A stretch of DNA of 64,000 nt from Phycisphaerales bacterium. Lineage in GTDB: Bacteria; Planctomycetota; Phycisphaerae; Phycisphaerales; SM1A02. How positions within the stretch are numbered: the stretch's first letter is position 1; every line of letters begins with the position of its first letter. The notes beneath the pieces are model-generated. The model was not told the DNA's origin. It worked only from the letters and a program-made list of their open reading frames with translations, and made no database searches. Positions 1,495-47,847 of the stretch are shown piece after piece. The translations under genes and the position numbers were made by a program. The stretch covers positions 900 through 64,899 of the forward strand of contig JAKEEP010000056.1 of the NCBI GenBank assembly GCA_022616475.1. Direction: 5' to 3'.

Positions 1495-1495
1495 C

Positions 1496-13537: not shown

Positions 13538-13560
13538 ATGCCAGAGCAAGAAGTTAACAC

Positions 13561-14934: not shown

Positions 14935-15656
14935 TGATGACGCTGCTTGAGCTTTGCGAGCCGCTGTTTCAGACAGTGTGTCGCTTGAACCGGTCGGGGC
15001 GCAAGGGGCTGAACCCGAATTTCCACGATGAGCGTGCAAAGATCAACGCGCTGTTGTCGGACATGAAGGCGCGGGCGCAAAGCACGCCGGGAGTGGCCGA
15101 CCAGTATGAGAAGGTGGAGCTGGCGCTGATCTTCTTTGTTGATTCAATGATCGCCGAGAGCAAGCTTGGTTTTGCGTCGGAATGGAACGCCGAGAGACTG
15201 GCGGAGAATCTGCACCCGCCGCAACTGGGAGGCGATGAGCGATTCTTTGATCTGTTGGATGAAGCGCTGGCGGACCGGAGCCATGGGGCAAGCGAGCGGC
15301 TGCAGGTTTTCTACACGTGCCTGGGGCTGGGATTTACGGGTTTCTATGCGGGACAGCCGGAATACCTGCGGCGGAAGATGAACGAGATTTCCTCGCGGCT
15401 CAAAGGGGTGAGCGAGTCGGAGTTGGCGAGCCGCATCTGCCCCGAGACCTATGAGCACATCAACACGGCTGACCTGGTAGAGCCGCCTGGAGTCAGGCTG
15501 GCGGGGTGGGCGATTGCAGTCGCCGCATTGATTGTGATCGTGTTCGCGGCGAACTTCACGCTGTTTCGAACCACGCGCAATGACCTGAAGGATTCGTTGG
15601 AGGAGATTACCCGGAAGGGCAACCCAAGCGCGTTGGCGGGGGAGGTCCAGCCATGA
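14934..15656 (+). CDS. tssL: T6SS membrane-complex protein TssL (DotU family)
   Basis: Cytoplasmic DotU-like domain (LALIFFVDSMIAES, FYTCLGLGFTGFYAG) with a single C-terminal TM helix (WAIAVAALIVIVFAANFTLF). The start overlaps the tssK stop. The stop overlaps the tssM start (ATGA). Confidence 0.85.
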   Translation: MMTLLELCEPLFQTVCRLNRSGRKGLNPNFHDERAKINALLSDMKARAQSTPGVADQYEKVELALIFFVDSMIAESKLGFASEWNAERLAENLHPPQLGGDERFFDLLDEALADRSHGASERLQVFYTCLGLGFTGFYAGQPEYLRRKMNEISSRLKGVSESELASRICPETYEHINTADLVEPPGVRLAGWAIAVAALIVIVFAANFTLFRTTRNDLKDSLEEITRKGNPSALAGEVQP

Positions 15657-18600: not shown

Positions 18601-20209
18601 GCAGATGATCAAGGATCAATCGGACGCCGCCAGTTTTCCGGCTGGGAATGACGCCGGTCCGCGAAACGAGTTGCCTGAGATTCCGTTGACGGCGCTGGCG
18701 CACAATCCAGCCAAGCGGCAACTCGATGCGGCCTACATTCAGGGAGCCGAGTCGAGTTTTCTCGAATCGTGGAAGACGCTCACAGGGTTGCTGAAGCCGG
18801 TCGCACCGCCGGCGCCGGAGCCGCTGCTGGATCGGGCGGCCTTGAAAAGCGCGTACGACGGCAAGGCGAGCGCTGTCAACCAGTACATCGACGACTACGT
18901 GAATTATTGGGCTGTCGAGGTTCGCAACCGCAGCGCGATCGATTTTGGAAGCGCGACCAAATGGGAAGGGGAGCCGGGCTCGGCCGGGATCCGCGATCAA
19001 CTGAAGACGGTCAAGATTTCCGACACCAACAAGAATCTGAAGCTTGTCGCCGAGCGCACACGCGACGCGCTGGAGCGAGTCGACCAGGCCGCCCTCAATG
19101 AGGCGGCGAGGAAGACGTTGGAGCAGATTCGCTGTGAAATCAGGACGCTGACCGATTCGGGCTTCGAAAAAGGGTGCAACACCGCCCTGGACCATTGGAG
19201 AAGCCTGAATTCGTTTGAACAGGCGAAAGGAACGCTGTTGCGCAGCATGAATCTGGACAACACCTTTTTTGAGGTGTATCAGGATGAGTGCACATCTCAA
19301 ACCGGCGCGGTGAGATACTGGAGCGATCTGGGGTTGAAGTCGCTTGAAATGCTCGCCAATGAGGGCAGCGCATCGACGTTGGACGCCAAGAAGAAGTTGA
19401 CGGCCCAAGCCAGCCAGAAGTTCCCGCTTTGCTTCAGCCATTCGGAGTTGTCGGAGGCGGAGTTCACCGACGCCCAGAGGTGGTTCCAAGCGATCGACGC
19501 GGCTGCGGCTGGAAAGGCAGGGGCTGATACCGACAAGACCCAGTGGAAGCTGGTGAACGAACAACTTCGGCGCCTTGCCGGCGTGGGTTTGTTCGATCAG
19601 CCGACACGCGACTGGATCCTGAAAACGAAGCCGATCTTCGAATTGTTTGAGAAGCCCAAGGGCGAGGGCTTCACTTGCAGCCTGGTCGTGGTCTCCGACG
19701 ACAGCCTGCAACGAGCAACGCCGGCCCGGCTTTACCTCGACGACGAAGCGGGGCGCAATGAGGCGGTTGCGGCGGTGGGGCGATTCGGATTCTTCAAGGT
19801 GAAGATCGGGGATGCCGAGACAGCCGACGCGATCAAGACCAGCGGAGGCGACCCGCTGAAGATTCAACAGCTGAAGCAAGACAGGTTCAAGCTACGGCTG
19901 CCGCAGGACCAGGAGGTGACGTTCACGTTCTACGAAGAAGCGCCTTCGCCCGGCAAGCCGCCGGCCGTTCGAGCCGTGGCAACTCTTCCAAAGCCCTGGA
20001 CCGGCCTGGGGGCGCTTCGGCTGACCAACGACCAATATGAGGGCGACGGTGAGAAGCGAGTCTGGCGGGCGCCGCTCCGAGTTGTCGTAGAGGAAGGGCC
20101 AGGCAAGGGGGAAACCTACTTCTACTGGATCGGCCTGCAGTTCAATCGCGATGTTCCCAAACAGGACGCCTGGCCACAGGCCAAGGACTGGGTTGGCTTG
20201 AGCCGCTGA
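15653..20209 (+). CDS. tssM: T6SS membrane-complex protein TssM (IcmF family), unusually long at 1,518 aa
   Basis: Two N-terminal TM helices are followed by [22 protein letters not shown] (Walker A), [15 protein letters not shown] and a third TM helix ([23 protein letters not shown]). A ~1,050-aa predicted periplasmic region follows. Confidence 0.9.
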   Translation: [1518 protein letters not shown]

Positions 20210-20246: not shown

Positions 20247-21293
20247 TTGGCACCAACTTTGTTGCACCGTAAGCCAAACAACCACTCGCCGGCACTGTTC
20301 CTGGGAGCTTTTGGCAAGCATCCGGGTTGGGATGACCACATCGACGACCTGGGTTTGGAGACTGATACCCTGGTCGCGATCAAACGAGCAATCTACACCG
20401 ACGGAGTGGGGATCAACGTGGACTCGGGCGCGTGGGAGGCGCTGGAGGAACGCAGGCGGACCGAAGGATTCGATCACCTGGTCGTTTGGCGCAACGGAAG
20501 CGATATGGTCGTTGGCCGCCTCTGGTCGTCAAGTGATGGCAAGGGACGCACGCGATACCCGATGGTGGCGGCGGCTCACGCGACCGGCACAGCCCTGGAT
20601 TGGGCCGTTGGCGAAGCGCTGCCAAGGCTGGAAGCGCTTCGCGCTCGTTGCGTGGCGACCAAATCGGCCCGCGAGGTCCGCGACACAGTTGACCAGACGC
20701 GACGGCAGCTTCGCGACGCCCTGGCAGCCGCGGGGAAAGGGGCGTTTGAATCGCCCAATCGCATCAATCCAATTGAACGGCTCGCGGGCCATGCGAACAT
20801 GGGCTCGCAGGGCGAAGGACTGCTGCGCATCCTGTATCAAGTTGAACGGGAAATGTCGGCGTTCAAGCCGCTGGCTCCGGGTACGACCGCATTCCGAGTC
20901 AAGGGGGCCAGCCAACGCGCACAGCAGATAAGGGTCCCCAAGTGCGGCCAAGGACCGGCGGACGAGGCTCTTCTCTGGCAGGCGTTCATGCTCACGCAGG
21001 TTCACGCGGCAGCGCCGGTGCTGGTGCTGGTCCCTGTGGATCAGACCTGGGTGGATGTGATTGTCGGTGAGTCGGGCGCGGCGCAACTGTTTTGCCTGCG
21101 GGCAACGCAAGACGCCATTCCCTTGGTGACTGAGATTCCGTTCACTTTGGAGCCAGGCTTCATCGAACGCGCCGGTGAGTTCATCGCTCAGGCAAGGGCA
21201 GGTGAGGGCTTAAGCTTCTCGGTCTCGCCCGCGATGGGCAGCGTTCATCGGGAGCCGAAACTGCTTCAGCGAATCTTGCGTCTGCGATCGTGA
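20247..21293 (+). CDS. tagF: T6SS-associated protein TagF
   Basis: The N-terminal FLGAFGKHPGWDDHID matches the TagF opening motif (G-x-FGK-x-P-x-x-GDF). It lies directly downstream of tssM. No ATG is available near the start. Candidates are TTG 20247, 20259 or 20262, with AGGAG at 20241-20245. Confidence 0.75.
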   Translation: MAPTLLHRKPNNHSPALFLGAFGKHPGWDDHIDDLGLETDTLVAIKRAIYTDGVGINVDSGAWEALEERRRTEGFDHLVVWRNGSDMVVGRLWSSSDGKGRTRYPMVAAAHATGTALDWAVGEALPRLEALRARCVATKSAREVRDTVDQTRRQLRDALAAAGKGAFESPNRINPIERLAGHANMGSQGEGLLRILYQVEREMSAFKPLAPGTTAFRVKGASQRAQQIRVPKCGQGPADEALLWQAFMLTQVHAAAPVLVLVPVDQTWVDVIVGESGAAQLFCLRATQDAIPLVTEIPFTLEPGFIERAGEFIAQARAGEGLSFSVSPAMGSVHREPKLLQRILRLRS

Positions 21294-21741
21294 CCGGGGG
21301 ATTGCCCTGAAGCGCATCGCCGAACGGTTCGGACAAGTTCACCACGACAACGTCAGTGCGAGGGGTGGCCGATAATATCGACTTCTGCCTTGGTTCAACC
21401 GTAGAGTCGAGGCAGGCGACCAGAAGTCGTGCTTCGAACTGGTTTTTTGGCGCGCATCGTTGCGACTTGGCTCTCTATCTATGAGAGCTTGTGAAATCTG
21501 GCGCCTTTGTTCGAGTCTGAGGCAAAGAGTCTTGACGAAGCCATGCGGGTCGTTATCTTCGGTAATCGCCGCAACGGGGGAAGCAACCTGGACTGTTGCT
21601 GTCTAGTCGTCGAATCGCGGCATCAAGAAGCATGCCAGGCCAAGGAGGGCGCGGGCGCGAAGCGCTGTCGGGTTTGTTGTTTTTGTCGCCTTGGAATCAA
21701 GGCGGTCACAGTTGATTACCTGTCTCAGGGTCGGGACCATC

Positions 21742-23730
21742 ATGAACATTCAAAACAAGCCTGCGCGCCGTGGCGAAGCGGAGCGGGTTGCAATTGCGAA
21801 GATAGCGCGATCTGCGCTTCTGGTGGCAGCCGGAGCGCTGGCGCTCTGGACTACGGCAAAGAGCAGTGCGCTGGCAACCGAGCCGCAAGCGGCGCCGTCC
21901 ACTCCGAGCGCGGCGACCCAGCCCGCGATCGCACCGGGCGTCGCAGAAGATCCGGGCCCGTGGTACCGGATTGATCGGTTTGAATTGAAATACGCGTCTC
22001 CTCGCCCGGATCATGTTCCGATTTTTGAGCTTGCGCAAACGGAAATCCGTTTGACCAAGACCGCCAACGGATATGTTCCCCCCGGCGCCGACGTCACGGA
22101 ATTCAAGCTCATTGAAGCGCCCAAGGACCGTTACAGCCTCAGGGCGATCTACTCGATCTGCAGCCAATTGGTCCGCGCGCTGAATGAACGCGGCATGATC
22201 GGCATTGAAGTTTCGACCGACCAGATCGAGCCCAACGGCGATGACCGGCGCCAGGGTCAAACTGCGCTTCAACTGACTATCTCGACTGGCGAGGTCGTTC
22301 AGGTTCGAACGTTAGCCGCGGGTGAGCGAATCAACCCGCAATTGCGCGAGAACAATCCGGCGCATCAGTGGATTCGCGACCACTCGCCGGTGCAGCCTCG
22401 GACCGAAGGCGGCGCGGTGCGTGGATCGCTGCTGCGGCAGGACTTGCTGGAGGAATACCTGTTTGCACTGAGCCGGCACCCGGGCCGCCGGGTTGACATG
22501 GCCCTTTCGCAGGGGGATGTGCCGGGCGGGGCGGTGCTCGACTATATCGTGACGGAGAACGATCCCTGGCTTTGGTACACCCAAGTATCGAACACCGGCA
22601 CCTCACAAACCAAATCTGTTCGCGAGCGGTTCGGATTGATCCAGAATCAGTTGACCGGAAGAGATGATACCTTGACGCTGGACTACATCACGGCTGGTTT
22701 CCAGGACACCAACGCCCTGCTGGGATCGTATGAATGGCCGCTCGACGATGATCGCACCTGGCGGGCGCGGGGGTTTGCGTCCTGGAGCCAATACACCGCG
22801 TCGGACGTCGGATTCGCGGGCGAAGATTTTGAAGGCGAATCGTGGTCGATCGGCGGCGAAGTCTCGACCAACATCTTTCAATATCGTGAGTTCTTCATCG
22901 ACGCGATCGCCGGATTGAGGTTTGACAACATCAAAGTGGACAACCAGGCGGTTGCAATCGTGGGTGAAGCGGGGTTGCTCATTCCCAATATCGGAGCGCG
23001 GTTCGAGCGCACGACGCAGATCGACAACACGATGGGAGCCGTTTTCCTTGAATTCTGCTCAGCCGGGTGGACCGGCGTCGACGAGGCTGAGCTGACCGAA
23101 TTGGGACGGTTTCTACCGAGCGAGGATTGGGTCGTTCTTCGTTGGGATGCAACGCACTCATTCTTTCTGGAGCCGTTGCTTGACCCCGATTGGGAGGACC
23201 CGGAGGCGGAAGGTTCGAAACTAGCGCATGAGATCCAGGCGGTGTTCAAGGGGCAGTATGCATTTGACCGCCGACTGATCCCTCAATTCGAACAGGTGGT
23301 GGGCGGCTTGTACACCGTGCGCGGATACCCCGAGTCAGTCGTGGCGGGCGACTCAACAGTTATCGGGAACCTGGAATACCGATTTCACGTTCCTCGAGCG
23401 TTCTATCAGCGGCCCGATGGTCGCGAAACTGTGCCTGAACCCCAACTCTTCGGCGGGCCGTTCCGATGGGTGCCACAAACGCCTTACGGCACGGCGGATT
23501 GGGACGTGGTCCTCAAAGCGTTCTTCGATGCCGGTTGGGCCGGGATCAGCGAGCCGTTCTTCTTTGAATCCGATCACACGCTGTTGAGTGCGGGGGTGGG
23601 GATTGATTTCTTGTTCAAGCGCAACCTGACGGTTCGGGTGGATTGGGGATTTGTGTTACGCGCGCTTGAAGACTTGGACGTGAACAGCGGGTCAAACCGC
23701 GTTCAGTTTGTTGCGACTTTTCTCTTTTGA
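21742..23730 (+). CDS. Two-partner secretion outer-membrane transporter (TpsB; ShlB/FhaC family)
   Basis: Signal-like N-terminus (IARSALLVAAGALALWTTAKSSALA). POTRA-like region (YRIDRFELKY...LQLTISTGEVVQVRT). Barrel motifs YTVRGYPES and GNLEYRF. The C-terminal residue is aromatic (FVATFLF). It sits immediately upstream of a TPS-domain exoprotein. Confidence 0.85.
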   Translation: MNIQNKPARRGEAERVAIAKIARSALLVAAGALALWTTAKSSALATEPQAAPSTPSAATQPAIAPGVAEDPGPWYRIDRFELKYASPRPDHVPIFELAQTEIRLTKTANGYVPPGADVTEFKLIEAPKDRYSLRAIYSICSQLVRALNERGMIGIEVSTDQIEPNGDDRRQGQTALQLTISTGEVVQVRTLAAGERINPQLRENNPAHQWIRDHSPVQPRTEGGAVRGSLLRQDLLEEYLFALSRHPGRRVDMALSQGDVPGGAVLDYIVTENDPWLWYTQVSNTGTSQTKSVRERFGLIQNQLTGRDDTLTLDYITAGFQDTNALLGSYEWPLDDDRTWRARGFASWSQYTASDVGFAGEDFEGESWSIGGEVSTNIFQYREFFIDAIAGLRFDNIKVDNQAVAIVGEAGLLIPNIGARFERTTQIDNTMGAVFLEFCSAGWTGVDEAELTELGRFLPSEDWVVLRWDATHSFFLEPLLDPDWEDPEAEGSKLAHEIQAVFKGQYAFDRRLIPQFEQVVGGLYTVRGYPESVVAGDSTVIGNLEYRFHVPRAFYQRPDGRETVPEPQLFGGPFRWVPQTPYGTADWDVVLKAFFDAGWAGISEPFFFESDHTLLSAGVGIDFLFKRNLTVRVDWGFVLRALEDLDVNSGSNRVQFVATFLF

Positions 23731-23803
23731 TTGGTTGGTGGTTGGTTTAACATCGCTCTAAAAGCCTGCAAAATGCGGGTCAACCGGGGAATTTGGAGGT
23801 CTC

Positions 23804-26800
23804 ATGGACCACACGACTCTTCGGCGTTTCAATCGGTTGTCCAGGCCATATGCGGCCTTCGCGGCGGCGTTCTCCCTTCTGATCGCTCCGCTGGTGGCGT
23901 TGGGCGGTCCGCAAGGCATGCAGGTCATCAATGGGAACGTTGTGTTCAAGCAGAACGGCAACGTTTACATCATCCAGGCCAGCAACAAGAGCATCATCAA
24001 TTTCAGCAGCTTCAACATTGGTGCCAATGAGACGGTTCAATTCATTCAGCCCAACGAATTGGCGCGCGTGCTCAACCGAATTACAGGTCCCGGGCCAACG
24101 CAAATCGATGGTCAACTCCTGGCCAACGGAATCGTATACCTAGTAAACCCGGCGGGCGTGATCTTCGGCAATGGTTCGGTGGTGGATGTCGGTGGCATCT
24201 ACGCCGCGGCGGCGGATATCTCCAACACGCGCTTCATCAAAGACATCAACCGGTTCCCGAACGTCACCGGCGACGTTGTGAATCATGGGACGATCCATGG
24301 CGACATCGTCCATCTGATTGGAAAACACGTTGCCAATCACGGGGTGATCGTCGCCGATGGTGGCCTTGTTAGCATGCTGGCGGGGGACGACATTTTCATC
24401 GGCAAGCAAAACGGCCGCATTCTGGTGCGCATTGACGGCCACAACTTGGCCAACGCCGCGGCCGCGGGTCAAAGCAGTCCCGATGTTCAGGCTACCCCGG
24501 GAGTCGAGAACACGGGCATCATTCGCGCGCATGACGGCCAGGTTGTCGTCGGAGCGGGGGATCTCTACTCGCTGGCCATTCGCAATTCCGGAACCATCAG
24601 CGCCAAGCGCGGCGATGTGACGGTCGCCGCCGCCGACGGTGTGATTCACAACACCGGATTGATCAGCGCTTCGACGCACGGCGGCACGGCTGGATCGGTC
24701 ACGGTTCGGGGCCCAAGCGTGGTCAATTCGGGTGAAATCAGCGCTGATTCGGACAAGGGACAGGCCGGATCAGTTGAGGTCACCAGCCAGAATCACACCT
24801 ATTTGCTGGACGGAAGCCTGGTCTCAGCGGCGGGCGGAAACGATTCTGCCAATGGTGGCGAGGTTTTGATCCACAGCTACAACGGATTGACGGTTTTCGA
24901 GGACGGCGCGGTGGTCGATGTGTCGGGGGGATATCAGGGTGGTCACGGCGGATTTGCAGAAGTTTCGGGCAAGTGGCTGGATTACGCGGGACACGTGAAT
25001 CTGAAGGCCAAGGGGGGATATGACCGTGGCCACCTGCTGATTGATCCGCGCGACATCACGATTGAGCTGTTGGATGACGAGGCCGATCCGGCGGGGAGCA
25101 AATACCTGGATCCCGAAGGCTCGATTCTGTTTGATGAGCCCGACGAGACCACGGACATCGTTGTGTCGGTGCACGCACTGACTCAGGTGATGGGTGAGAT
25201 CACGCTTCAAGCCACGCGCGACATCTTCATCAATGACGACGTTAACCTTGTGAACAGCAACGACGTCACGTTGGAGGCGTGGCGGGACATTTTCTTCAAC
25301 GCTGCCATCAATGGCGCGCATGATTTGACGGCCACGGCGGATGCGGACAACGATGGCGACGGAGCGCTGCATCTGCCGATTGATTTCGATCTGAGCGGCA
25401 GCGGAAATTTCAGCGGCGCGGAGATCAGGTTGAGCGCGGACATTTCGGCGGGTGTCGAGGCGTTGGTGGGAGGCGGCGGCGACCTGACGTTCAATGACCC
25501 GGTCATTCTCACCGAGGACGTGACGTTGAACGCCGACAACATCACGTTTGCAAGCACGATTGATTCGGACGCGATCGGCACGCCGCGGGTTCTGCAGGTG
25601 AACAGCGCCAATGCCGGGACGACGATTTTCGGGGGGGCGATCGGGAGCACGGCGTTGCTGGAGGCGCTGACCACGAACGCTGACGGCGAGACACAACTCA
25701 ACGGCGGCGCGGTGACTGCCAACGCCGATTTGAACTTCAATGATCCCGTGAGGCTGGGGGCGGACACCACGTTGGCCGCCAACGACGTCACATTCGCACA
25801 GACCGTCGACTCTTTCGACGCGACGGATCGATTCTTGGTGGTGAACACGACTGGCGGCGGCGCTACGACATTCGCAGACGCGGTGGGATCGACCTTTGAC
25901 CTGTTGAGCCTGACGACGAATGCCGATGGAGAGACGCGGCTCTTCGGCGGCTCGGTGGTCACCAGCGCCGACCAGACTTACAACGATGCGGTGCGGCTGG
26001 GCGCGGACACCACGCTGGCGGGCAACGATGTCACGTTTGCCTCGACCGTAAACTCTTTTGATGCCACCGATCGATTCCTGGTGGTGAACACGACCGGTGG
26101 CGGAATTACGACATTCGGCGGCACTGTTGGATCGACCTTTGACTTGCTCAGTTTGACCACCAATGCGGATGGTGAGACAAGGCTCAACGGTGGGTCGATT
26201 ATCACCAGCGCCGATCAGACCTACAACGACGCGGTGCGGTTGGGCGCGAATACGACGCTCACGGGCAACGACATTACGCTTGCTTCCACCGTGAACTCGT
26301 TCGATGCAACGGATCGATCTCTGGTGGTAAACACAAGCGGGGGAGGAATTACAACATTTGGCGGCGCGGTGGGAGCAAGCTTTGACCTGCTCAGTTTGTC
26401 TACCAACACCGATGGCGAGACTCGCTTGAATGGCGGCTCAATCATCACGAGCGGCGATCAAACCTACAACGATTCGGTGTGGCTGGGAGCGAACACAACG
26501 CTCACGGCCAACGACATTACGTTTGTGTCCACGGTCAACTCGCTCGATGCGACGGATCGATTCCTGGTCGTGAACACAACCGGGGGCGGAATTACGACAT
26601 TTGGCGGCGCGATTGGATCAATCTTTGACCTGTTGAGCCTCACCACGAATGCGGACGGCGAGACGCGGCTGAACGGCGGGTCGGTGATCACGAGCGCCGA
26701 TCAAACGTACAACGATGCGCTGCGGCTGGGTGCGAACACGACCCTGGCTGCGAACGACGTGACGTTTGCCGCCTCCGTCAACTCGTTTGACGCGACGGAT

Positions 26801-29800
26801 CGATTCTTGACCGTGAATACCACAGGCGGCGGCGTCACGACGTTTGGCGGCGCTGTTGGAACGAGCTTTGACCTCTTAAGCCTGACCACAAACGCCGACG
26901 GCGAAACACGGCTCAACGGCGGCTCAGTGATCACGAGCGCCGATCAAACCTACAACGATGCCCTGCGGCTGGGCGCGAACACGACTTTGACGGCCAACAA
27001 CATCACGTTTGCTTCAACGGTGAACTCGTTTGATGCCACGGATCGATTCCTGGTCGCGAACACGACCGGCGGCGGCATCACGACATTCGGCGGCGCGGTT
27101 GGAACGAGCTTTGACTTGTTGAGTCTGACCACGAATGCTGACGGCGAAACGCGCCTCAATGGTGGCTCGATCATCACCAGCGCCGACCAGGCCTACAACG
27201 ATGTGGTACGGCTGGGGGCCAACGCGACGCTGGCGGCCAACGACGTCACATTCGCCCAGACTGTTGATTCTCTTGATTCGACGGATCGCTCCCTGGTCGT
27301 GAATACAACCGGCGGCGGAATCACGACATTTGCGAGCGCTGTGGGATCAATCTTCGAACTTCTGAACCTGACGACGAACTCCGATGGTGAGACACGACTG
27401 AATGGCGGAGTTGTGATCACGAGCGCCGATCAGACTTTCAACGACGCGGTGCGGCTGGGCGCCGACACAACGCTCACGGGCAACGACATTACGCTTGGCT
27501 CGACCGTCAACTCGTTTGATGCGACGGATCGATTCCTGGTCGTGAACACGACCGGAGGCGGAATCACGACATTCGGGGGCGCTGTGGGAGCGACCTTTGA
27601 TCTGTCGAGTCTGACCACCAATTCCGATGGAGAGACGCGGCTGAATGGCGGATCAGTCATGACGAGCGGCGATCAGTCGTATGACGACGCGGTGCGGCTC
27701 GGCGCCAACACGACATTGACGGCCAACGACATCACGTTTGCTTCGACCGTGGACTCGTTCAATGCAACAGATCGATTCCTGGTCGTAAACACAACTGGCG
27801 GCGGGAACACAACGTTCAACGGCGACGTGGGCACGGATTTCGCTCTGATGAGCCTGACGACGAACGCCGATGGGCAGACGAACATCGCCCAGGACATTGA
27901 GACCACAAACGGAATCACGTTCGCCGACAACGTGGTGCTGACAGGCGCGGGGTTGCAGACTCTGGATGCGGGCGCTGGTCTGCTGCATGCGCAGAGCACC
28001 GTTGACAAGGACACGGGCAACCTCGATCTGGTCGGCGGATCAGTCGAGCTCGACGACAACATCGTCGTTGATATTGGCAGCCTGGAGGTCACCGGCGCGC
28101 TGACGGCTTCGGGCCTTGTTCAAGCCGGGCAGAACATCGACACCAACGATACTGCTGTGTTCATGGGTGATGTGATTGGCGGCGGCAACGTCACGTTCGA
28201 CGACGCTACCGAATTCAACGGCCTAGTTGATCAAACGGTGACGGCCCAAACCGGAACGCTTTGGGCCAAGCAAACGGTCACCAAGAACAACGGCGGGAAC
28301 CTCGCGCTCAACGGTGAACTGCTGGTCAATCTCGACGGAACAGTTGACGTGAACGATGGCGGCAACCTGGCGATCACCGGTGATGGCGGCGACCTTGTGG
28401 TTGCCGGAACCATCGACGCCGAGGCGAATCTGTTGGCTGGTGGCGACATCACCGTTGACGGTGCGGCGACTGTGGGAGGCAACGTCAACGCAGGTGGGAA
28501 CGTGACGTTCCACGACGCCTCAGAAGTTGGTGGATTCGTTCAGGCGACTGGTGGCAATGCGCTGTTCGAGGGCGAGGCGAACATCGATGGCAACATTACC
28601 GCGGGCAACAACGCGACGTTCCAGCAGGACGCGTTCCTTGGCGGCGATGTGTTTGCCAGCGTGAACATTACCTTTGAGATGGATGCTGAATTTGATGGAT
28701 CGAGTCATCAGTCAGTCGATGCCGATGGTGGACTGCTCGATTTCAACGGCTCGCTGGTCAAGAGTTCGGCGGGGAACTTGAGCCTTCACGGCGATACCGG
28801 CATTCACGTGGCCGGAAACGCCCAAACGGGCGACGGCAACCTCGTGTTTGAGGACGATGTGGAGTTTGACGGGGCCGCAGGCGTCAATCAAGTTGCGCAG
28901 GCGGGCACCGGTGTTGGCGACGGAATGCTCGACTTCCACGGGAGCACGCTGCGAACCCAGCAGGGGAATCTGAATCTCGTTGGCGCCGACGGCATCGAAG
29001 TGGCGGGAAATGCCACGACGTTCGATGGCGACCTGGTGTTTGACGGTGATGTCGAGTTCGATGCGAGCGCCGGGAGTGACCAACTCGCTCAAGCCGGCGA
29101 CGATGGAACGCTGGATTTTCAGGGAGACATCGATCGGACAGAGGATGGGAATCTCACGCTGATCGGAGCAGGCGGCATTGAAGTGGCAGGCAACGCCAGC
29201 ACAAGCAACGGCGATTTGTTCCTGAACAACGATACGGAGTTTGATGGCGCGGGCGATCAGGAGGTTTTGGCGAACGGCGGCACGCTCGATTTTGATGGAG
29301 AGGTCGAGAAGACCACGGGCGGCGCGCTGACTCTTGCCGGGACAGATGGCATCTTCGCTTCCGAAAACGTCGAAACCGCCGATGGCGACCTGACGTTCGC
29401 CGACGATGCGCACTTTGACGGCGAAGGGAAGCAAGAGATCAGCGCCTCGGGCGGCCTGCTCAGTTTCGCATCGGACGTCGAGAAGCTCAACGGGGGGATT
29501 GCAGGCAATCTGAAACTGATCGGCGATTTGGGCGTCAGCATCGGGGGCGACGTTGAAGTTCAAGACGCCAGCTTGATCGTGCAGGGCGACGCGTTCCTGG
29601 GCGGCGATGTGTTCGCGAGCGTCAATGTGCACTTCCGCGACGATATTGAAATCCAGGCCAATGGGTTGAAGATCAACGCCGGGGAAAGCGTCAGACTTCT
29701 CGGTCAAATCACAAGCGAAGCGAATGAGACGAATGATCTGCGAATCAAGAGCCTGGATGGCGATGTTGTTCTTGGCGGCAGCATTGGAACCAATGCAGCA

Positions 29801-31084
29801 AACCAGCTAGGAACACTGCGAATCAATGCCGGAGGCGACGGCATCATTGATTTCCGATCAGGCCACGTGCTCGTGGCGGGGGATCTGGTGCTGAACAAGA
29901 ACCAGCACGCCTCAGTGCCTCTCGCGGCGACGATCGTCGGCCGAGACGACCTCAGCATCAACGTCGGCGGCGATTTCATCATGGGGCAAAATGAGAAATT
30001 CACCGTGCTGGGCGATCTGGCCATTCACGCCGACAACGCCACGCTGAGCGATCTCTCCACTCTGGGCGACATGACGGTGGACACAACGAGCGCGGGGACG
30101 ATTCTGATTCTCCGTCGTCTGGCGAGCAATGTGCTTGAAGCGGATGGAAGTCTGGTTGAGGATCTGGGAGTCGATTTCGTCGCCGGCGGCGAAATCAACT
30201 TCATCTTCGGCACGCTGGCGCCGCAATCGGCGGGCGATCCGCGGCCGACCTTTGCCACCGTCGAGGGGATCAACGGCGTGAATCTTGAGTTGGCGTTTGC
30301 GCTGGATCCGTCCGATGGCAATCGGTATTCGTTCCGTCGGCTCAGCAACGTCTACGGGTCGTTCTTTAATGGCACCGATTCGCCTGTGTTTGGAGGCAGT
30401 GTGCTCGATCTGCGCACGCAAGGGCCCACTGAGACCGATCCATCGACAGCGCTCGCCAGCACTGTTCCGCTGGAGAGTCGTGTTCGAATTGTGCCGCCAG
30501 GTGCTGAGCTTTCGGCAGCGCAGCGCGAGCACCTGGCGCAACTGCGAATTCGAGTGCGCAATTGGCCGGACCAGGGACGGTGGGTGGAAGAAACCAGCCT
30601 GGCGGCGGGCAAATACGTATTCGAAGACGTTCCATCGAAAGTGGGATCGGCCGACCGCGAGATCGCGGAGGGCCGTCTCGATCGGGAATTGGTGACACGA
30701 GTGCTGGCGATGCGCGACGCATTCCTTGAGACGACCGATCCAGAGCAGGCCGACAAAAAAGGCTGGATCGTGGTGAAGGAAATGTTGCAGCGAACCTGGA
30801 CCAAATACTACGAGGAAATGACGGCAGCTGGCGTTGAAGAGCCACCCATCGATGGCTTCCGCGCTTACATCGAGGGCCTGCCCGAAACCGACGCCGCCCC
30901 CCGGATGGTGGCGGACCTGCGCAAATTCCTTGAGGCGCTGAGCCTGCTGGGGCTGAATTCCTGGGAGGCCGCCAATCCGCGCAGCGCCATCATTCACGAA
31001 ATCACGCCAGCTGATATGCAGCAAGTGATCGAGAAATTATTTGAGCAAGGGCCGGACACTCGCACGCAAGCGATGGCAGACTGA
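23804..31084 (+). CDS. Two-partner secretion exoprotein (TpsA; filamentous haemagglutinin-like, 2,426 aa)
   Basis: GGAGG lies upstream of the ATG and the signal region is extended. The TPS domain reads INGNVVFKQNGNVYIIQASNKSIINFSSFNIGANETVQFIQP...LNRITG...TQIDGQL...IVYLVNPAGVIFG. Long beta-helix-type repeat tracts follow. The ~250-aa C-terminal region is helical and non-repetitive. Confidence 0.9.
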   Translation: MDHTTLRRFNRLSRPYAAFAAAFSLLIAPLVALGGPQGMQVINGNVVFKQNGNVYIIQASNKSIINFSSFNIGANETVQFIQPNELARVLNRITGPGPTQIDGQLLANGIVYLVNPAGVIFGNGSVVDVGGIYAAAADISNTRFIKDINRFPNVTGDVVNHGTIHGDIVHLIGKHVANHGVIVADGGLVSMLAGDDIFIGKQNGRILVRIDGHNLANAAAAGQSSPDVQATPGVENTGIIRAHDGQVVVGAGDLYSLAIRNSGTISAKRGDVTVAAADGVIHNTGLISASTHGGTAGSVTVRGPSVVNSGEISADSDKGQAGSVEVTSQNHTYLLDGSLVSAAGGNDSANGGEVLIHSYNGLTVFEDGAVVDVSGGYQGGHGGFAEVSGKWLDYAGHVNLKAKGGYDRGHLLIDPRDITIELLDDEADPAGSKYLDPEGSILFDEPDETTDIVVSVHALTQVMGEITLQATRDIFINDDVNLVNSNDVTLEAWRDIFFNAAINGAHDLTATADADNDGDGALHLPIDFDLSGSGNFSGAEIRLSADISAGVEALVGGGGDLTFNDPVILTEDVTLNADNITFASTIDSDAIGTPRVLQVNSANAGTTIFGGAIGSTALLEALTTNADGETQLNGGAVTANADLNFNDPVRLGADTTLAANDVTFAQTVDSFDATDRFLVVNTTGGGATTFADAVGSTFDLLSLTTNADGETRLFGGSVVTSADQTYNDAVRLGADTTLAGNDVTFASTVNSFDATDRFLVVNTTGGGITTFGGTVGSTFDLLSLTTNADGETRLNGGSIITSADQTYNDAVRLGANTTLTGNDITLASTVNSFDATDRSLVVNTSGGGITTFGGAVGASFDLLSLSTNTDGETRLNGGSIITSGDQTYNDSVWLGANTTLTANDITFVSTVNSLDATDRFLVVNTTGGGITTFGGAIGSIFDLLSLTTNADGETRLNGGSVITSADQTYNDALRLGANTTLAANDVTFAASVNSFDATDRFLTVNTTGGGVTTFGGAVGTSFDLLSLTTNADGETRLNGGSVITSADQTYNDALRLGANTTLTANNITFASTVNSFDATDRFLVANTTGGGITTFGGAVGTSFDLLSLTTNADGETRLNGGSIITSADQAYNDVVRLGANATLAANDVTFAQTVDSLDSTDRSLVVNTTGGGITTFASAVGSIFELLNLTTNSDGETRLNGGVVITSADQTFNDAVRLGADTTLTGNDITLGSTVNSFDATDRFLVVNTTGGGITTFGGAVGATFDLSSLTTNSDGETRLNGGSVMTSGDQSYDDAVRLGANTTLTANDITFASTVDSFNATDRFLVVNTTGGGNTTFNGDVGTDFALMSLTTNADGQTNIAQDIETTNGITFADNVVLTGAGLQTLDAGAGLLHAQSTVDKDTGNLDLVGGSVELDDNIVVDIGSLEVTGALTASGLVQAGQNIDTNDTAVFMGDVIGGGNVTFDDATEFNGLVDQTVTAQTGTLWAKQTVTKNNGGNLALNGELLVNLDGTVDVNDGGNLAITGDGGDLVVAGTIDAEANLLAGGDITVDGAATVGGNVNAGGNVTFHDASEVGGFVQATGGNALFEGEANIDGNITAGNNATFQQDAFLGGDVFASVNITFEMDAEFDGSSHQSVDADGGLLDFNGSLVKSSAGNLSLHGDTGIHVAGNAQTGDGNLVFEDDVEFDGAAGVNQVAQAGTGVGDGMLDFHGSTLRTQQGNLNLVGADGIEVAGNATTFDGDLVFDGDVEFDASAGSDQLAQAGDDGTLDFQGDIDRTEDGNLTLIGAGGIEVAGNASTSNGDLFLNNDTEFDGAGDQEVLANGGTLDFDGEVEKTTGGALTLAGTDGIFASENVETADGDLTFADDAHFDGEGKQEISASGGLLSFASDVEKLNGGIAGNLKLIGDLGVSIGGDVEVQDASLIVQGDAFLGGDVFASVNVHFRDDIEIQANGLKINAGESVRLLGQITSEANETNDLRIKSLDGDVVLGGSIGTNAANQLGTLRINAGGDGIIDFRSGHVLVAGDLVLNKNQHASVPLAATIVGRDDLSINVGGDFIMGQNEKFTVLGDLAIHADNATLSDLSTLGDMTVDTTSAGTILILRRLASNVLEADGSLVEDLGVDFVAGGEINFIFGTLAPQSAGDPRPTFATVEGINGVNLELAFALDPSDGNRYSFRRLSNVYGSFFNGTDSPVFGGSVLDLRTQGPTETDPSTALASTVPLESRVRIVPPGAELSAAQREHLAQLRIRVRNWPDQGRWVEETSLAAGKYVFEDVPSKVGSADREIAEGRLDRELVTRVLAMRDAFLETTDPEQADKKGWIVVKEMLQRTWTKYYEEMTAAGVEEPPIDGFRAYIEGLPETDAAPRMVADLRKFLEALSLLGLNSWEAANPRSAIIHEITPADMQQVIEKLFEQGPDTRTQAMAD
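25670..27856 (+). repeat. Nine tandem copies of a 243-nt (81-aa) repeat inside tpsA
   Basis: The protein unit TTNADGETRLNGGS(V/I)ITSADQTYNDA(V/L)RLGANTTLTANDITFASTVNSFDATDRFLVVNTTGGGITTFGGAVG(T/S)SFDLLSL recurs nine times in phase. More degenerate copies sit on each side. The period also shows as a ladder of minus-strand ORFs spaced 243 nt apart. Confidence 0.95.
28690..29593 (+). repeat. Five diverged ~58-64-aa repeats (second repeat family) inside tpsA
   Basis: The recurring unit is EFDG(A/S)..Q......G.LDF.G.......GNL.L.G..GI.V.GN..T..GDL.F..D. It is recognisable at protein level only and is much more diverged than the 243-nt family. Confidence 0.7.
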
Positions 31085-31097
31085 GCTTGGCCGCATC

Positions 31098-31439
31098 ATG
31101 CACGCGTCAATGAACCATCAATCGGGAAGTTCGTCGGAGCTTGGGCAGGACCTATTGAGCCGAATCGTTGAGCAGCAACCGGCCTCGGCCGACCATTCAA
31201 CGCCGCTGAGCGCGACCTCGAGGTCGGCGGTGGCGGAGGTCGCCCGGCGCTATGCCGGCGAGCGGCTGTCACTCAATCCGATCACGGTGGAACTGCTGCG
31301 CGCCGTGTTGGTGGATTGGCTGGGAGTGCCCACCGGCGGCATCGAGACGATCGTCGAGCAGGTGGCGGCGACGCTTTACGAGGATCCGGTCTCGCATGAC
31401 CGGCTGCAGGCGATGTGGATCAACCTGGGTGGGAGCTAA
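31098..31439 (+). CDS. Small hypothetical protein (113 aa) coupled to the downstream sigma-factor gene
   Basis: The ATG lies 14 nt after the tpsA stop. The stop lies 4 nt before the sigma-factor ATG. The N-terminus is Ser/Gln-rich and probably disordered, and the C-terminal half is helical. No recognisable motif. Confidence 0.55.
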   Translation: MHASMNHQSGSSSELGQDLLSRIVEQQPASADHSTPLSATSRSAVAEVARRYAGERLSLNPITVELLRAVLVDWLGVPTGGIETIVEQVAATLYEDPVSHDRLQAMWINLGGS

Positions 31440-31443
31440 GCGC

Positions 31444-32190
31444 ATGGCGGCGGCCCGGCAAATGACTGTTCAGCGCGTGATCGAACCGGTTGTGGAGAGC
31501 AAGTCAGCCACATCGGCGAGACAGCAACTGATCGAGTCGTGCCAGGGTCTGGTTCGATCGCTGGCGTGGAAGATTCACAAGAAACTGCCGGCACACGTCG
31601 AACTGGAAGACTTGATCGCCTATGGAGATGTCGGCTTGACGCAAGCGGCAGATGATTTCGACCCGACCCGCGGGCACCGATTCATCACCTACGCGCACCA
31701 TCGGATCCGGGGCGCGATCCTTGACGGGCTGTCGCAAATGGCCTGGTTCAACCGCCAAGACTATCACCGGTCGCGCTACGAGCAAATGGCCAACGAGTTC
31801 TTGCGACTGCACGGCGAAGATGGAGCCATGGTGGCGTCAAACGATGTCGAGCAGCAGCTGCACTGGTTGAGAGATGTCGGGAGCAGCTTGGTAGTTGTGC
31901 ATCTGGCGTGCGGCGATGATGATCGCGGCGTCAAGGGCCTGGTTGAAGACTCGGAGGTGGAGCCGGAGCGGCGAACGATTCAACAGGAGCTTCGGCAGAA
32001 GCTACGACAACTCATCGATGAGTTGCCTGCGGAGGCAGGCCTGTTGATCCGCTCGGCGTACTTTGACGGGTTGACGTTGCAGGAGGCGGGCCAGCGACTG
32101 GGAATCAGCAAGGCGTGGGCAAGCCGGCTCCACGCCAAGACGCTTCAGCGGCTGGCGAAGTCGTTGCGGCTGGCGGGGGTTGCGGACTAG
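31444..32190 (+). CDS. Sigma-70 family factor, group 3 (FliA/WhiG/SigB-like)
   Basis: Region 2 reads LIESCQGLVRSLAWKIHKK...ELEDLIAYGDVGLTQAADDFDPTRGHRFITYAHHRIRGAILDGL. Region 4 has an HTH: LLIRSAYFDGLTLQEAGQRLGISKAWASRLHAKTLQRLAKSL. The listed ORF start (31252) overlaps the previous gene. The ATG at 31444 gives a normal 248-aa sigma factor. Confidence 0.85.
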   Translation: MAAARQMTVQRVIEPVVESKSATSARQQLIESCQGLVRSLAWKIHKKLPAHVELEDLIAYGDVGLTQAADDFDPTRGHRFITYAHHRIRGAILDGLSQMAWFNRQDYHRSRYEQMANEFLRLHGEDGAMVASNDVEQQLHWLRDVGSSLVVVHLACGDDDRGVKGLVEDSEVEPERRTIQQELRQKLRQLIDELPAEAGLLIRSAYFDGLTLQEAGQRLGISKAWASRLHAKTLQRLAKSLRLAGVAD

Positions 32191-32236: not shown

Positions 32237-33370
32237 ATGCCATCGGCACAAGTTCTTGAAATCAAGGATCTGTTGCAGCCCATTCCCGGAGGCAACCCTG
32301 CTGGGGCGAACCTGCGCGACGATCGGTCGCCGGTTTCGATCTACCAGGCGATCAAGGCAAGCCGAACACAGGCTCGGGCGGCGGAGCGGCAGGCTTTGAC
32401 CGAGGATTCGGAATCGTCAAGTGTCAAGGCGGATTGGCGTCCAATCCTCGAGCAGGCGCCGAAGGTCATCGCTGAGAAATCCAAGGACATCGAGCTGGCG
32501 GCCTGGCTGATTGAGGCGCTGGTGAGGCAGCACGGCTTTGCGGGGATGCGCGATGGATTTCGGTTGGCGCGCGAGCTCGCCGAACAATTCTGGGACCAGT
32601 TGTACCCGTTGCCCAACGAAGATGGGGTCGCGGACCGGGTTGCGGCGCTGGCGGGACTGAATGGCGTGGAAGGCGAGGGGACGCTGATCGCGGCCATCAA
32701 TCGCGTTCCGTTGGCGATTGGAAAAGACGGCCGGGGCCATACGAGGGCCGACTACAAGCAGGCGGCGGACTTGGAGGCCGTCACGGATCCGGATCGGCGC
32801 AGCCAGCGTTTGGCCCGCGGCGCGGTGAGCATGGAGATGCTGGAGCGCGCGGCGCTGGAGACGCCCGCGGAGTTCTTCCGGAATGTGCGCGACGACTTGA
32901 AGCAATGCAGCGAAGAGTTCGATCTGCTCTGCGGCGTGATGGATCAACGCTGTGGAAGGGGACCGGACGGAGCGCCGGCAGCGCCTCCTTCATCGGCCAT
33001 TCGCTCAGCGCTGGCTGAGTGCATGGATGTGGTGCTGGCGCTGGGCAAGAACGTATTCGGAGATGATGCGGCAGGGAGCGCCGAAGGCGAGGCGCGTTCG
33101 ACCGACGAGGCGCGACCCGCCGCTGGGGGCGGCGCGGTGGCGCGGCAGATTCACAATCGCCAGGAAGCATTGCAATCGCTGCTGCGCGTGGCGCAGTTTT
33201 TCAAGGATACCGAGCCGCACAGCCCGATTTCGTACGCGCTGGAGCAGGCGGTGCGCTGGGCGAAGATGCCGCTGCCGGCGTTGCTGGGTGAGCTGATACC
33301 CGATCAAAGCGCCCGCGAGAGCGTGTTCAAGCTCGTTGGCATTGTTCCAGAGAAAGGTCCGAACAGTTAG
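32237..33370 (+). CDS. tssA: T6SS protein TssA (ImpA N-terminal domain family)
   Basis: ImpA_N-like opening (LLQPIPGGNPAGANLRDDRSPVSIYQAIKASR). Conserved C-terminal segment EPHSPISYALEQAVRWAKMPLPALLGEL. It lies upstream of tssB. Confidence 0.85.
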   Translation: MPSAQVLEIKDLLQPIPGGNPAGANLRDDRSPVSIYQAIKASRTQARAAERQALTEDSESSSVKADWRPILEQAPKVIAEKSKDIELAAWLIEALVRQHGFAGMRDGFRLARELAEQFWDQLYPLPNEDGVADRVAALAGLNGVEGEGTLIAAINRVPLAIGKDGRGHTRADYKQAADLEAVTDPDRRSQRLARGAVSMEMLERAALETPAEFFRNVRDDLKQCSEEFDLLCGVMDQRCGRGPDGAPAAPPSSAIRSALAECMDVVLALGKNVFGDDAAGSAEGEARSTDEARPAAGGGAVARQIHNRQEALQSLLRVAQFFKDTEPHSPISYALEQAVRWAKMPLPALLGELIPDQSARESVFKLVGIVPEKGPNS

Positions 33371-33541: not shown

Positions 33542-34057
33542 ATGGCCGAATCTGTACATGACAAACTCAAGCGCGTGAGGAAGCCGCGCGTTCACATCAC
33601 CTACGAGGTGGAAACCGAAGGGGCGATGGTGGTCAAGGAATTGCCGTTTGTGGTGGGCGTCATGGGCGACTACTCGGGCAACCCGAGCGAGCCGCTCAAG
33701 CCGCTGAAGGATCGCAAGTTCATTCAGATCGATCGCGACAACTTCAACGATGTCATGAGCCGCTTGACGCCCGGATTGAACCTCAAGGTGGAGAACACGC
33801 TGAAGGGCGACGGCGGTGAGTTGGGCATTGAGCTGAAATTCAAATCGATGGACGATTTCCTTCCGGCCAACGTGGCCAAACAGGTCGAGCCGCTGCGCAA
33901 ATTGATGGAAACGCGCAACAAGCTTCGTGATCTGCAAACCAAGGTGGACCGTTCGGATGAGCTGGAGAACGTGTTGGAGCGCATCCTGCAGGACACTGAT
34001 GAACTGAAGAAGGCATCAAGCGAGCTGGGCGTTGAAGCGCCAGCGACAGGAGCGTAA
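33542..34057 (+). CDS. tssB: T6SS contractile sheath small subunit TssB (VipA)
   Basis: Contains [33 protein letters not shown], typical of TssB. Size is 171 aa. GGAGG lies 8 nt upstream of the ATG. Confidence 0.95.
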
Positions 34058-34061
34058 CCCA

Positions 34062-35558
34062 ATGAGTGCAGCCGAACAGAAAACCCAAGCCGCGGGCGCC
34101 GCCACAACGGTTGCCGGCGCAAGCCTGCTGGAGCAGGCGATTTCCGCCACCAAGCAGACCGAACGGTCACAAGCTCAAGAGATGGTGAAGACTCTGGTCG
34201 CCGAAGTGACCAAAGGCACGGTGAGCTGGAGCAGGAACGTCTCGCGGACGATCAAGCTGGGAATTGAAGCCATCGATGCGGTGATCTCCAAGCAACTGGC
34301 CGCGATCATGCATCATCCGGATTTCCAGAAATTGGAAGGATCGTGGCGCGGGCTGAATTACCTGGTGATGAACACCGAAACCAGCGCGCAGTTGAAGATC
34401 AAGCTCTTGAACGTGTCAAAGCGCGATTTGTTCAAAGACCTGGACCGCGCGGTGGAATTCGATCAGAGCCAGGTCTTCAAGAAACTGTATGAGAACGAGT
34501 TCGGATCGCCCGGCGGTGAGCCGTACGGCGCGCTGGTGGGCGATTACGAGATCACGAATCATCCCGAGGACATCGATCTGCTGACCAAGATGTCGAATAT
34601 TTCGGCGGCGGCCTTCGCTCCATTCATCACGGCCGCGTCTCACGCGCTGTTGGGGCTTGACAGCTACACGGAGCTCGCCAAGCCGCGCGATCTGGAGAAG
34701 ATCTTCGACTCGGTCGAGTACACGTCGTGGAAGTCGTTCCGCGACAGCGAGGATTCGCGTTTTGTAACGATGGCGATGCCGCGCGTGCTTTCGCGCCTGC
34801 CCTACGGGGCCAACACCAAGCCGATTGAGGAATTTGGGTTCGAAGAAGTGACCTTGGACAGCAAGGGCAAGGCCAAGAAAGTCGCGCACGAGCACTATTG
34901 CTGGATGAACGCCGCCTACGTCCTTGGAGCGCGACTCACCGATTCGTTCGCCAAGAACGGCTGGTGCACATCGATTCGCGGCGCCGAGAACGGCGGCAAG
35001 GTCGAAGGGTTGCCCGCACACGTGTTCACCAGCGATGATGGCGATCCTGACCTGATGTGCCCCACCGAGATCGGGATCACCGATCGGCGCGAAGCGGAAT
35101 TGAGCAAGCTGGGCTTCCTGCCGCTGTGTCACTATAAGAACACGGATTACTCGGTGTTCTTCGGCGCGCAGACGGCGCAGAGACCCAAGAAGTACGACCG
35201 TCCCGCGGCAACGGCGAACGCGGCAATCTCAGCGCGCCTGCCATACATCATGGCAACGGGCCGGATCGCGCACTATCTGAAGGTGATTGCGCGCGACAAG
35301 ATCGGCTCGTTCATGGAGGCTAGCGATTGTCAGGAATGGCTGAATCGGTGGATCGCCAACTACATCTGCGCCGACGCCAAGCCGACGGCGGAGATGAAGG
35401 CGAAGTACCCTCTGGCTGAGGCGAAGATCGAAGTGAAGGAAGTGCCCGGCGCGCCCGGCAGCTACAACGCGGTGGCGTGGCTGCGGCCGTGGTTGCAAAT
35501 GGAAGAACTGACCACGTCGTTGCGAATGGTGGCCAGCATTCCGAAGCTGTCTTCGTGA
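34062..35558 (+). CDS. tssC: T6SS contractile sheath large subunit TssC (VipB), copy 1
   Basis: Contains [61 protein letters not shown] and the C-terminal [19 protein letters not shown]. The ATG lies 5 nt after the tssB stop. Confidence 0.95.
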
Positions 35559-35650
35559 GCGCGGGTTCAACCGCGCCAGACACGCCAATCCCAAATGGAT
35601 TGCGCGCGTCTGGCGCGGCGAATCCGGGCGCCGGAGGGAACGGTTGTGTC

Positions 35651-47810: not shown

Positions 47811-47847
47811 AGGGCGGGCCTCGAGGTCTCACGAGAGAATTTCGCAC

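Follow-up and report, generated by a model that had tools for sequence, protein, structure and literature searches.

In HMW1A/HMW1B of Haemophilus influenzae and EtpA/EtpB of enterotoxigenic Escherichia coli, a TpsB-type transporter is encoded beside a large exoprotein that carries no toxin tip, and the C-terminus of HMW1 tethers the protein to the cell. FhaB/FhaC of Bordetella is likewise a two-partner secretion (TPS) adhesin system; the C-terminal region of FhaB is distinct from the beta-helical shaft, and its C-terminal prodomain remains periplasmic and controls maturation. CdiBAI also consists of a TPS pair, whose very large filamentous exoprotein acts in contact-dependent cell interactions. 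Large surface proteins are found too in type VI secretion system (T6SS) clusters. TasL of the Vibrio fischeri T6SS2 is a large surface/envelope protein encoded in the T6SS cluster, dispensable for the core machine and proposed to act in target contact or recognition (PMC9040878), and the T6SS “target recognition factors” also include TslA, TagM1 and TagQRST (PMC13584744). Here we describe a TPS pair, tpsB and tpsA, that is embedded in a T6SS cluster of a Phycisphaerales bacterium (Planctomycetota). It occupies positions 21742-31084 of the + strand in a stretch of 64,000 nucleotides (nt) of contig JAKEEP010000056.1 (assembly GCA_022616475.1), the whole of which is called the window below.

The window pair differs from HMW1 and EtpA in that no HMW1C/EtpC-type glycosyltransferase gene adjoins it, that its passenger is unrelated past the TPS domain (81-amino acid (aa) repeats and a C-terminal domain of its own), that its TpsB is so divergent that a TpsB profile finds no match among PDB sequences, and that it lies inside a T6SS cluster. 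In contrast to FhaB, the window TpsA has no recognised Fil_haemagg repeats, its C-terminal domain is unrelated and much shorter, and its genomic context is another. The features that distinguish CdiBAI (a VENN/pre-toxin motif, a polymorphic tip, an immunity gene and FHA repeats) are lacking. TasL, TslA and TagM1 are lipoproteins rather than TPS substrates and have no sequence relation to the window pair; TasL-type roles rest on genetics and imaging, whereas we infer the role of the window pair from gene neighbourhood alone. The earlier note on this DNA, made from its letters only, had regarded such an embedded arrangement as non-standard for T6SS loci, and this view holds. Our literature search, which fell short of all journals, brought up no account of a TPS pair that belongs to T6SS clusters, so that an earlier description is possible. 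A 2026 review of T6SS accessory genes is silent on two-partner secretion, TpsB, adhesins, Planctomycetes, Verrucomicrobia and PVC (Planctomycetes, Verrucomicrobia and Chlamydiae) bacteria (PMC13584744).

The explanation that we prefer, with a probability of about 0.5, is that the pair is a conserved accessory of a PVC T6SS subtype, a surface adhesin or fibre that would aid target contact in a TasL-like role. TpsB would export TpsA, a giant repeat-rich and presumably beta-helical exoprotein, and TpsA, made together with the T6SS, would form a fibre or adhesin on the cell surface. The fibre might then set up or stabilise contact with the target cell, so that the contact-dependent T6SS would fire productively.

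The tpsB-tpsA pair

The gene tpsB (21742-23730, + strand, ATG at 21742) codes for a 662-aa outer-membrane transporter of the Omp85/ShlB family that carries a signal peptide. The protein matches Pfam ShlB (PF03865) with 33.2 bits for a cut-off of 22.7, the aligned part being aa 286-394 only. The loop-6 motif VRGY is found at aa 526, and its RGY is invariant across 26 TpsB homologues. A search identified 215 homologues sharing 41-56% identity with TpsB; the named ones belong to Phycisphaerae, Tepidisphaeraceae or Planctomycetes metagenome-assembled genomes (MAGs). The earlier note had expected TPS, ShlB and POTRA domains in the pair. Profile searches recognised the first two, but Pfam found no POTRA domain in the N-terminal 286 aa of TpsB. 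This region is covered when a profile of the 26 homologues (columns 92-645) is aligned by hhalign, with a probability of 99.7%, to Verrucomicrobia ShlB proteins that carry Pfam POTRA_2 at aa 90-160. The adjoining tpsA is encoded on the same strand after a gap of 73 nt (the median extrapolated gap in related loci is 120 nt). tpsB and tpsA are a genuine type Vb (two-partner) secretion pair.

The 2,426-aa exoprotein encoded by tpsA (23804-31084, + strand) is composed of a signal peptide, a TPS domain, a repeat region and a C-terminal domain. Its N-terminus is hydrophobic and signal-like, as seen in the translation. The TPS secretion domain (aa 36-265; 23909-24598) scores 82.1 bits with PF05860 and 69.8 bits with TIGR01901, above the respective cut-offs of 33.5 and 29.1 bits, and includes an NPAG motif (NPxG type) at aa 115. 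The best PDB matches of the N-terminal 399 aa are HMW1 (2ODL, 1.2e-28), EtpA (8CPK, 1.1e-24) and HxuA (4I84, 5e-17); no CdiA, FHA or ShlA-type chain is present among the PDB matches. The region that follows the TPS domain is rich in Gly, Thr, Ala and Asp and has no Cys. Within it a 243-nt (81-aa) unit is repeated 9.1 times in tandem (25667-27880), as identified by Tandem Repeats Finder with 77% matches, no indels and a score of 2095, and a protein motif recurs at the same 81-aa period. This repeat-rich part is taken to be a beta-helix. Pfam recognised no Fil_haemagg (FHA-type) repeat, no pre-toxin (PT) domain and no other domain beyond TPS in TpsA.

The C-terminal domain (aa 2080-2426; 30041-31081) combines the end of the beta-strand region with a helical part of ~190 aa that comes after it. 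The earlier description of the C-terminus as non-repetitive and helical was borne out: there is no repeat in this part, and in an AlphaFold model built from a 25-sequence alignment (mean predicted local distance difference test score (pLDDT) 75.7) the segment from about aa 2238 to 2425 is helical with a pLDDT of 80-97. A single-sequence model was unusable (pLDDT 37.6). The last 347 aa were compared with 1.84 billion representative proteins in an exhaustive HMMER search (E <= 0.001), which matched 144 proteins, the window TpsA included; a word-indexed protein search, unlike the exhaustive one, gave no match. In nearly all 144 the match lies at or near the C-terminus of proteins that reach 4,252 aa, many of them being fragments truncated by contig ends. 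Three full-length members of the family that were scanned have a TPS domain only. In related genomes the domain is found, with 25-50% identity, in TpsA proteins whose genes are linked to a T6SS as well as in those that are not.

These data bear on the possibility that the pair is a system akin to contact-dependent inhibition in which TpsA carries a novel C-terminal toxin, the sense in which the earlier note had allowed for a novel C-terminal activity. It is true that the C-terminal ~350 aa match no known family or fold, so that some novel activity is conceivable: the remote-homology searches for a known activity returned nothing, and the best Foldseek hit of the C-terminal model against PDB has E = 0.55. 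However, the C-terminus is conserved rather than polymorphic across the 144 proteins. Because this conservation is family-wide and extends to unlinked paralogues, the C-terminus of TpsA is best described from its alignments as a conserved family domain and not as a polymorphic toxin tip. The absence of VENN noted earlier was confirmed by a motif scan that also failed to find VDNN, ELYN, NEALV, DAENN or LYVN in TpsA, and Pfam detected no PT-VENN. No toxin domain was found in the window TpsA or in three relatives. The TPS domain is nearest to that of the HMW1/EtpA adhesins. Among the relatives, eight have tssA beginning 35-300 nt past tpsA with no gene in between, so that an immunity gene would not fit there; in three further ones the distance from tpsA to tssB is the size of one tssA gene, and in the window a sigma factor gene comes next. 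A toxin-delivering role is very improbable in view of these features. The C-terminal tethering of HMW1 provides a possible role for the conserved domain of TpsA, which could, by analogy with HMW1 and FhaB, tether the fibre to TpsB or to the periplasm.

Recurrence of the pair beside T6SS genes

The survey of relatives was carried out with the TpsB profile against one genome per GTDB species, taking 10 kb on each side and locating the window proteins by tblastn. The best 80 loci were used. Nearly all are labelled as Planctomycetota MAGs, mostly Phycisphaerales/Phycisphaerae, and their TpsB proteins are 38-48% identical to the one of the window. T6SS genes are found beside the pair in 42 of these 80 species-level loci, on the same strand, with tssL, tssM and a conserved 348-aa gene on the 5′ side and/or tssA, tssB and tssC on the 3′ side, mostly in the slot that the pair occupies in the window. 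No T6SS gene was identified within at least 8 kb upstream in 18 loci, while the remaining 20 were too short to tell. The usual order is tssK-tssL-tssM-348-aa gene-tpsB-tpsA-tssA-tssB-tssC, often with a long kinase-like or FGE-sulfatase-type gene (or a fusion) ahead of tpsB. It is reproduced in GCA_007693785.1, for which gene calls are independent and Pfam matches precomputed (TssK-DotU-TssM-328 aa-ShlB-TPS (3196 aa)-ImpA_N). Two loci, L041 and L072, have housekeeping genes followed by tpsB-tpsA-tssA (ImpA_N, 112-115 bits), an order in which the pair heads a split tssA operon. In a rough neighbour-joining tree most linked TpsB proteins fall into large clades and many unlinked ones into a separate clade. 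The complete T6SS-linked TpsA proteins are all 2,017-3,314 aa long; one unlinked clade has TpsA proteins of ~1,250-1,550 aa.

A second survey, a metagenome scan anchored on the 348-aa gene, extended the association to another phylum. In ten contigs a ShlB-type gene (Pfam scores of 90-100 bits in the two that were scanned) lies directly 5′ of a segment composed of a homologue of the 312-aa gene that opens the window cluster, tssK, tssL, tssM and the 348-aa gene, and in front of the ShlB-type gene the C-terminus of a protein is encoded that is rich in repeats and presumably beta-helical. Named relatives of this ShlB protein are few, and most of them are from Pedosphaera sp. or Verrucomicrobiae. 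A contig of 4.6 Mb displays the whole arrangement: TpsA (1,656 aa, with TPS and DUF5649)-TpsB-306 aa-TssK-DotU-TssM-TagF-like::FGE-sulfatase. The order in Verrucomicrobiota is thus inverted, with tpsA before tpsB, and the pair directly precedes the tssK-L-M operon. This T6SS is assigned to the same subtype because the 348-aa protein of the window shares 43% identity with the N-terminal part of the Verrucomicrobia protein that ends in an FGE-sulfatase domain. The association of a TPS pair with a T6SS therefore exists in at least three gene orders and two PVC phyla. The TpsB groups of Phycisphaerae and Verrucomicrobia are only ~24% identical, which implies either an old association or independent recruitment, and either of them points to selection for proximity.

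The pair could have been a mobile TPS locus that was recently and fortuitously inserted in the T6SS cluster, as a slightly lower G+C content over the pair (0.58-0.60 versus ~0.61 in the flanks) might suggest. This shift is marginal, no mobile-element gene was found among the scanned open reading frames (ORFs), and the same slot is filled in dozens of genomes that have diverged from one another. Since the linkage recurs, an insertion by chance is ruled out, and we leave this scenario next to no credit. T6SS clusters without TPS genes and TPS pairs away from any T6SS do both occur, as the earlier note had foreseen for an insertion of that type, but the recurrent linkage speaks against it all the same. 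The suggestion made in the same note that two contact-dependent surface machines may be co-regulated, an adhesin providing the cell contact for T6SS firing, fares better: the linkage is conserved (42 of 80 loci, three to four gene orders, two phyla), which favours a link of a functional or regulatory kind, and the TPS domain is of the HMW1/EtpA type, the role itself being a matter of inference. An adhesin-type TPS domain, a long shaft of repeats, the lack of toxin and immunity genes, and recurrent linkage to a T6SS are together best accommodated by a fibre or adhesin. Surface display, adhesin function and coupling to T6SS activity would follow from this interpretation.

Several observations weigh against it. 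Among the metagenome loci with sufficient flanking sequence, 15 lack any TPS gene closer than 10 kb to the 348-aa gene; several of these end in housekeeping genes (pyruvate phosphate dikinase, symporter, glycoside hydrolases), and others go on to encode a HEAT-repeat protein or a Ser/Thr kinase that bears 11 Ig-like domains. The presence of such TPS-less clusters of the same subtype indicates that the pair is dispensable for the machine and therefore accessory, not core. Unlinked paralogues have the same C-terminal domain, length alone having been found specific to the T6SS-linked TpsA. A clade formed by L048, L069, L075 and the short locus L059 keeps tpsB after the 348-aa gene (at ~10001-11810 in the first three) with no adjacent tpsA: neither a tpsA nor a giant ORF is found within 10 kb downstream, the next genes coding for a signal peptidase, HSP20 and a kinase-TPR protein. 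This orphan tpsB is not predicted by a pure adhesin model. All carriers seen are metagenome-assembled genomes or assemblies. A promoter-like block that is conserved in the spacer upstream from tpsB may also mean that tpsBA is transcribed separately.

This spacer has 448 nt (21294-21741, + strand), in agreement with the ~450 nt given previously. A promoter scan identified in it a sigma-70-like candidate, TTGACG-16 nt-TATCTT (21532-21559, + strand), although the number of promoters found by the scan is not above chance. Alignment with the spacer of L162, the closest relative with DNA available for this comparison, revealed little conservation, and the block TTGACG-16/18 nt-TA(t/c)(c/t)TT is its most noticeable kept stretch. 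No Rfam family matched the spacer, which, together with its low conservation outside the promoter-like block, led us to reject an RNA element there, and no terminator-like site was found in the intergenic gaps from the 348-aa gene to tssA. As the promoter-like block is kept, tpsBA may have a promoter of its own, from which transcription would read through into the downstream genes. The spacer also has the sole copy in the 64-kb window of the sigma-28 −10 consensus GCCGATAA (21368-21375). A sigma-28 (FliA) promoter for the neighbouring sigma factor was rejected because there is no TAAA −35 element and the site is not kept in the L162 spacer. The sigma factor in question is encoded between tpsA and tssA (31252-32190, + strand). 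It is a FliA/WhiG-like member of the sigma-70 family (Sigma70_r2 and r4) whose TIGR02479 score, 119.8 bits, is under the family cut-off of 189.6. None of the 80 GTDB loci has a sigma factor gene at that place, and a sigma-70 family gene is also found 3′ of tpsA in the closest relative, P0003 (TpsB 54% identical).

The promoter-like element, and the hint of local regulation given by the sigma factor genes that adjoin tpsA both here and in the closest relative, would suit an ordinary TPS adhesin or cytolysin that is mechanistically independent from the T6SS. Such a protein would belong to a surface/antagonism island, maybe co-regulated, and its linkage would reflect shared regulation or shared inheritance. 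The occurrence of the same T6SS subtype in TPS-less clusters and the domain plan common to unlinked TPS paralogues are also compatible with independence. However, the linkage persists at TpsB identities down to ~40%, and it survives kinase-like insertions between the 348-aa gene and tpsB, the splitting of clusters, and the inversion of the order of the two genes in another phylum. Retention through such rearrangements is hard to explain without selection for proximity, and we regard an independent adhesin or cytolysin as somewhat unlikely.

The T6SS cluster around the pair

The cluster that surrounds the pair is complete and extends from 12.6 to 51.2 kb of the window on the + strand, as defined by Pfam/TIGRFAM matches. 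Its first gene codes for a conserved protein of 312 aa (12599-13537) for which no Pfam or NCBIfam family matched. The baseplate and membrane-complex genes tssK (13561-14934; T6SS_VasE, 211.9 bits), tssL/dotU (14931-15656; DotU, 101 bits) and tssM (15653-20209; 1,518 aa; IcmF-related_N, 184.9 bits) are located immediately 5′ of the region of the pair. They are followed by the 348-aa gene (20247-21293, probable start near 20304), the spacer, tpsB-tpsA and the sigma factor gene, and then, also on the + strand, by tssA (32237-33370; TIGR03363, 281.7 bits), tssB (33542-34057; VipA, 207 bits) and two tssC paralogues (34032-35558 and 35477-37252; VipB, 443.7 and 398.6 bits). After tssC the order is tagJ/impE, tssE, tssF, tssG, clpV, hcp, vgrG, two genes without assignment and a gene for a PAAR protein (50855-51154, + strand; Pfam/TIGRFAM match). 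The core set of a T6SS-i is thus complete: TssA, TssB, TssC (two copies), TssE, TssF, TssG, ClpV, TssK, TssL, TssM, Hcp, VgrG and PAAR. No match to TssJ (T6SS-SciN) was obtained among the scanned ORFs; as some small ORFs were not part of the scan, its absence is likely but unproven.

The 348-aa gene had been labelled tagF in the earlier note, which placed the pair between tagF and the sigma factor/tssA on one strand. Coordinates, sizes and flanks were confirmed; the name was not. The product resembles TagF solely by its place after tssM and by an N-terminal FGKHPGWDDH (GK.P..DD) motif. TagF identity was rejected, there being no match with Pfam (E up to 10), with NCBIfam (E up to 0.01), in PDB-profile searches or in tblastn against plasmids, and the gene is designated TagF-like here by position and motif. 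More than 100 loci keep it behind tssM. Many relatives have it as a fusion with a long C-terminal extension, in which an FGE-sulfatase domain was recognised in the three relatives scanned. Large membrane proteins accompany the TagF-like gene, either separately or as fusions (7713-11972 in the window, 9815-15583 in L097, 9926-12091 in L145 and 12316-19899 in L110); several relatives have an FGE-sulfatase domain (TagR-type), and a Ser/Thr kinase bearing 11 Ig-like domains occurs in one lineage. Pfam recognised no domain in the window representative (1,419 aa). Its identification as a kinase and FGE-sulfatase fusion was rejected, since neither domain was found by Pfam and the protein is dissimilar to the Verrucomicrobia TagF-like::FGE protein; an FGE-like C-terminus is hinted at only by Phycisphaerae relatives (25-30% identical) and an RLPTxxEW-like motif. 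TagR corresponds to COG1262 (PMC13584744). The TagF-like gene and the large FGE/kinase proteins suggest a post-translational control module like TagR/PpkA.

This neighbourhood could also mean that the pair belongs to the envelope or signalling apparatus of the T6SS. TpsB, with or without TpsA, would then be an outer-membrane partner where no TssJ is recognisable, or the binding of TpsA to a target would be sensed and passed on by way of the neighbouring TagF-like, FGE-sulfatase and kinase-like proteins so as to license firing. tpsB adjoins the membrane-complex operon not only in clusters like that of the window but also in Verrucomicrobiota and the orphan-tpsB clade, and TssJ escaped detection while all the other core genes that were scanned for were found. 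The FGE-sulfatase domain of several relatives is that of the TagR family, and in some lineages the protein kinase (Pkinase) with 11 Ig-like domains is encoded at the same place. On the other hand, a canonical TPS-domain substrate accompanies TpsB in nearly every case, as it does in ordinary TPS systems, and many clusters of the subtype have neither tpsA nor tpsB. The TssJ scan covered a part of the ORFs, and TssJ-less T6SSs are known from Acinetobacter (PMC10564176). We consider a role of this kind distinctly unlikely. A broader proposal, speculative and itself unlikely, would unite the elements of the locus: the pair might be an integral outer-membrane and target-recognition module of the PVC T6SS, in which a TpsA fibre anchored by its C-terminal domain and by TpsB near a TssJ-less membrane complex would bind prey or neighbouring cells, and a relay via the TagF-like, FGE-sulfatase and kinase-like proteins would trigger assembly at the site of contact.

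Other features of the cluster and its borders deserve description. The 312-aa gene is found directly 5′ of tssK, or of tssL in some loci, and is kept in most related loci that reach that far, in Phycisphaerae, in Verrucomicrobiota and in the groups without a TPS pair, and so has the look of a T6SS component specific to the subtype. An ORF of 92 aa on the − strand (12016-12294), with a lipoprotein-type signal (LAGC) and no family match, lies where the 1,419-aa gene and the 312-aa gene leave a gap, in a cluster for which TssJ was otherwise not found. The two tssC paralogues (VipB + VipB_2) stand one after the other behind tssB, and the Verrucomicrobia-type contig L145 encodes VipA and VipB domains in one protein (13281-15059) ahead of its regular tssB/tssC; duplication or fusion of a sheath gene may be a trait typical of the subtype. 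The two genes between vgrG and the PAAR gene (47779-50825), of 645 and 371 aa and without family match, are candidate T6SS effector, chaperone or immunity genes. A 784-aa gene without family match (4692-7046) is 53% identical to a gene of the TPS-less metagenome contigs L108 and L110, which has the same relative place, 5′ of the 312-aa gene. At the 5′ edge of the window (47-3697) are found a histidine kinase fragment, a double response regulator and a hybrid response regulator-GAF-histidine kinase; these two-component genes 5′ of the cluster are possible regulators.

Meaning for T6SS biology in PVC bacteria

By what means T6SSs locate and retain their targets is still an open question. Few factors for contact or recognition are known to be encoded in their clusters (TasL, TslA/TagM1, TagQRST), and all are from Proteobacteria. 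Were the pair independent from the T6SS, it would still define a large family of PVC TPS adhesins, so far uncharacterised, whose conserved C-terminal domain has no match among solved structures. If it were an integral module of the machine, it would be the first instance of a type VI machine that incorporates a type V secretion system. If the accessory role that we prefer is correct, a giant fibre exported by two-partner secretion would be a new class of T6SS accessory that links secretion systems usually treated apart. It would provide a testable handle on the biology of the T6SS in Planctomycetota and Verrucomicrobiota, where these machines are essentially unstudied.

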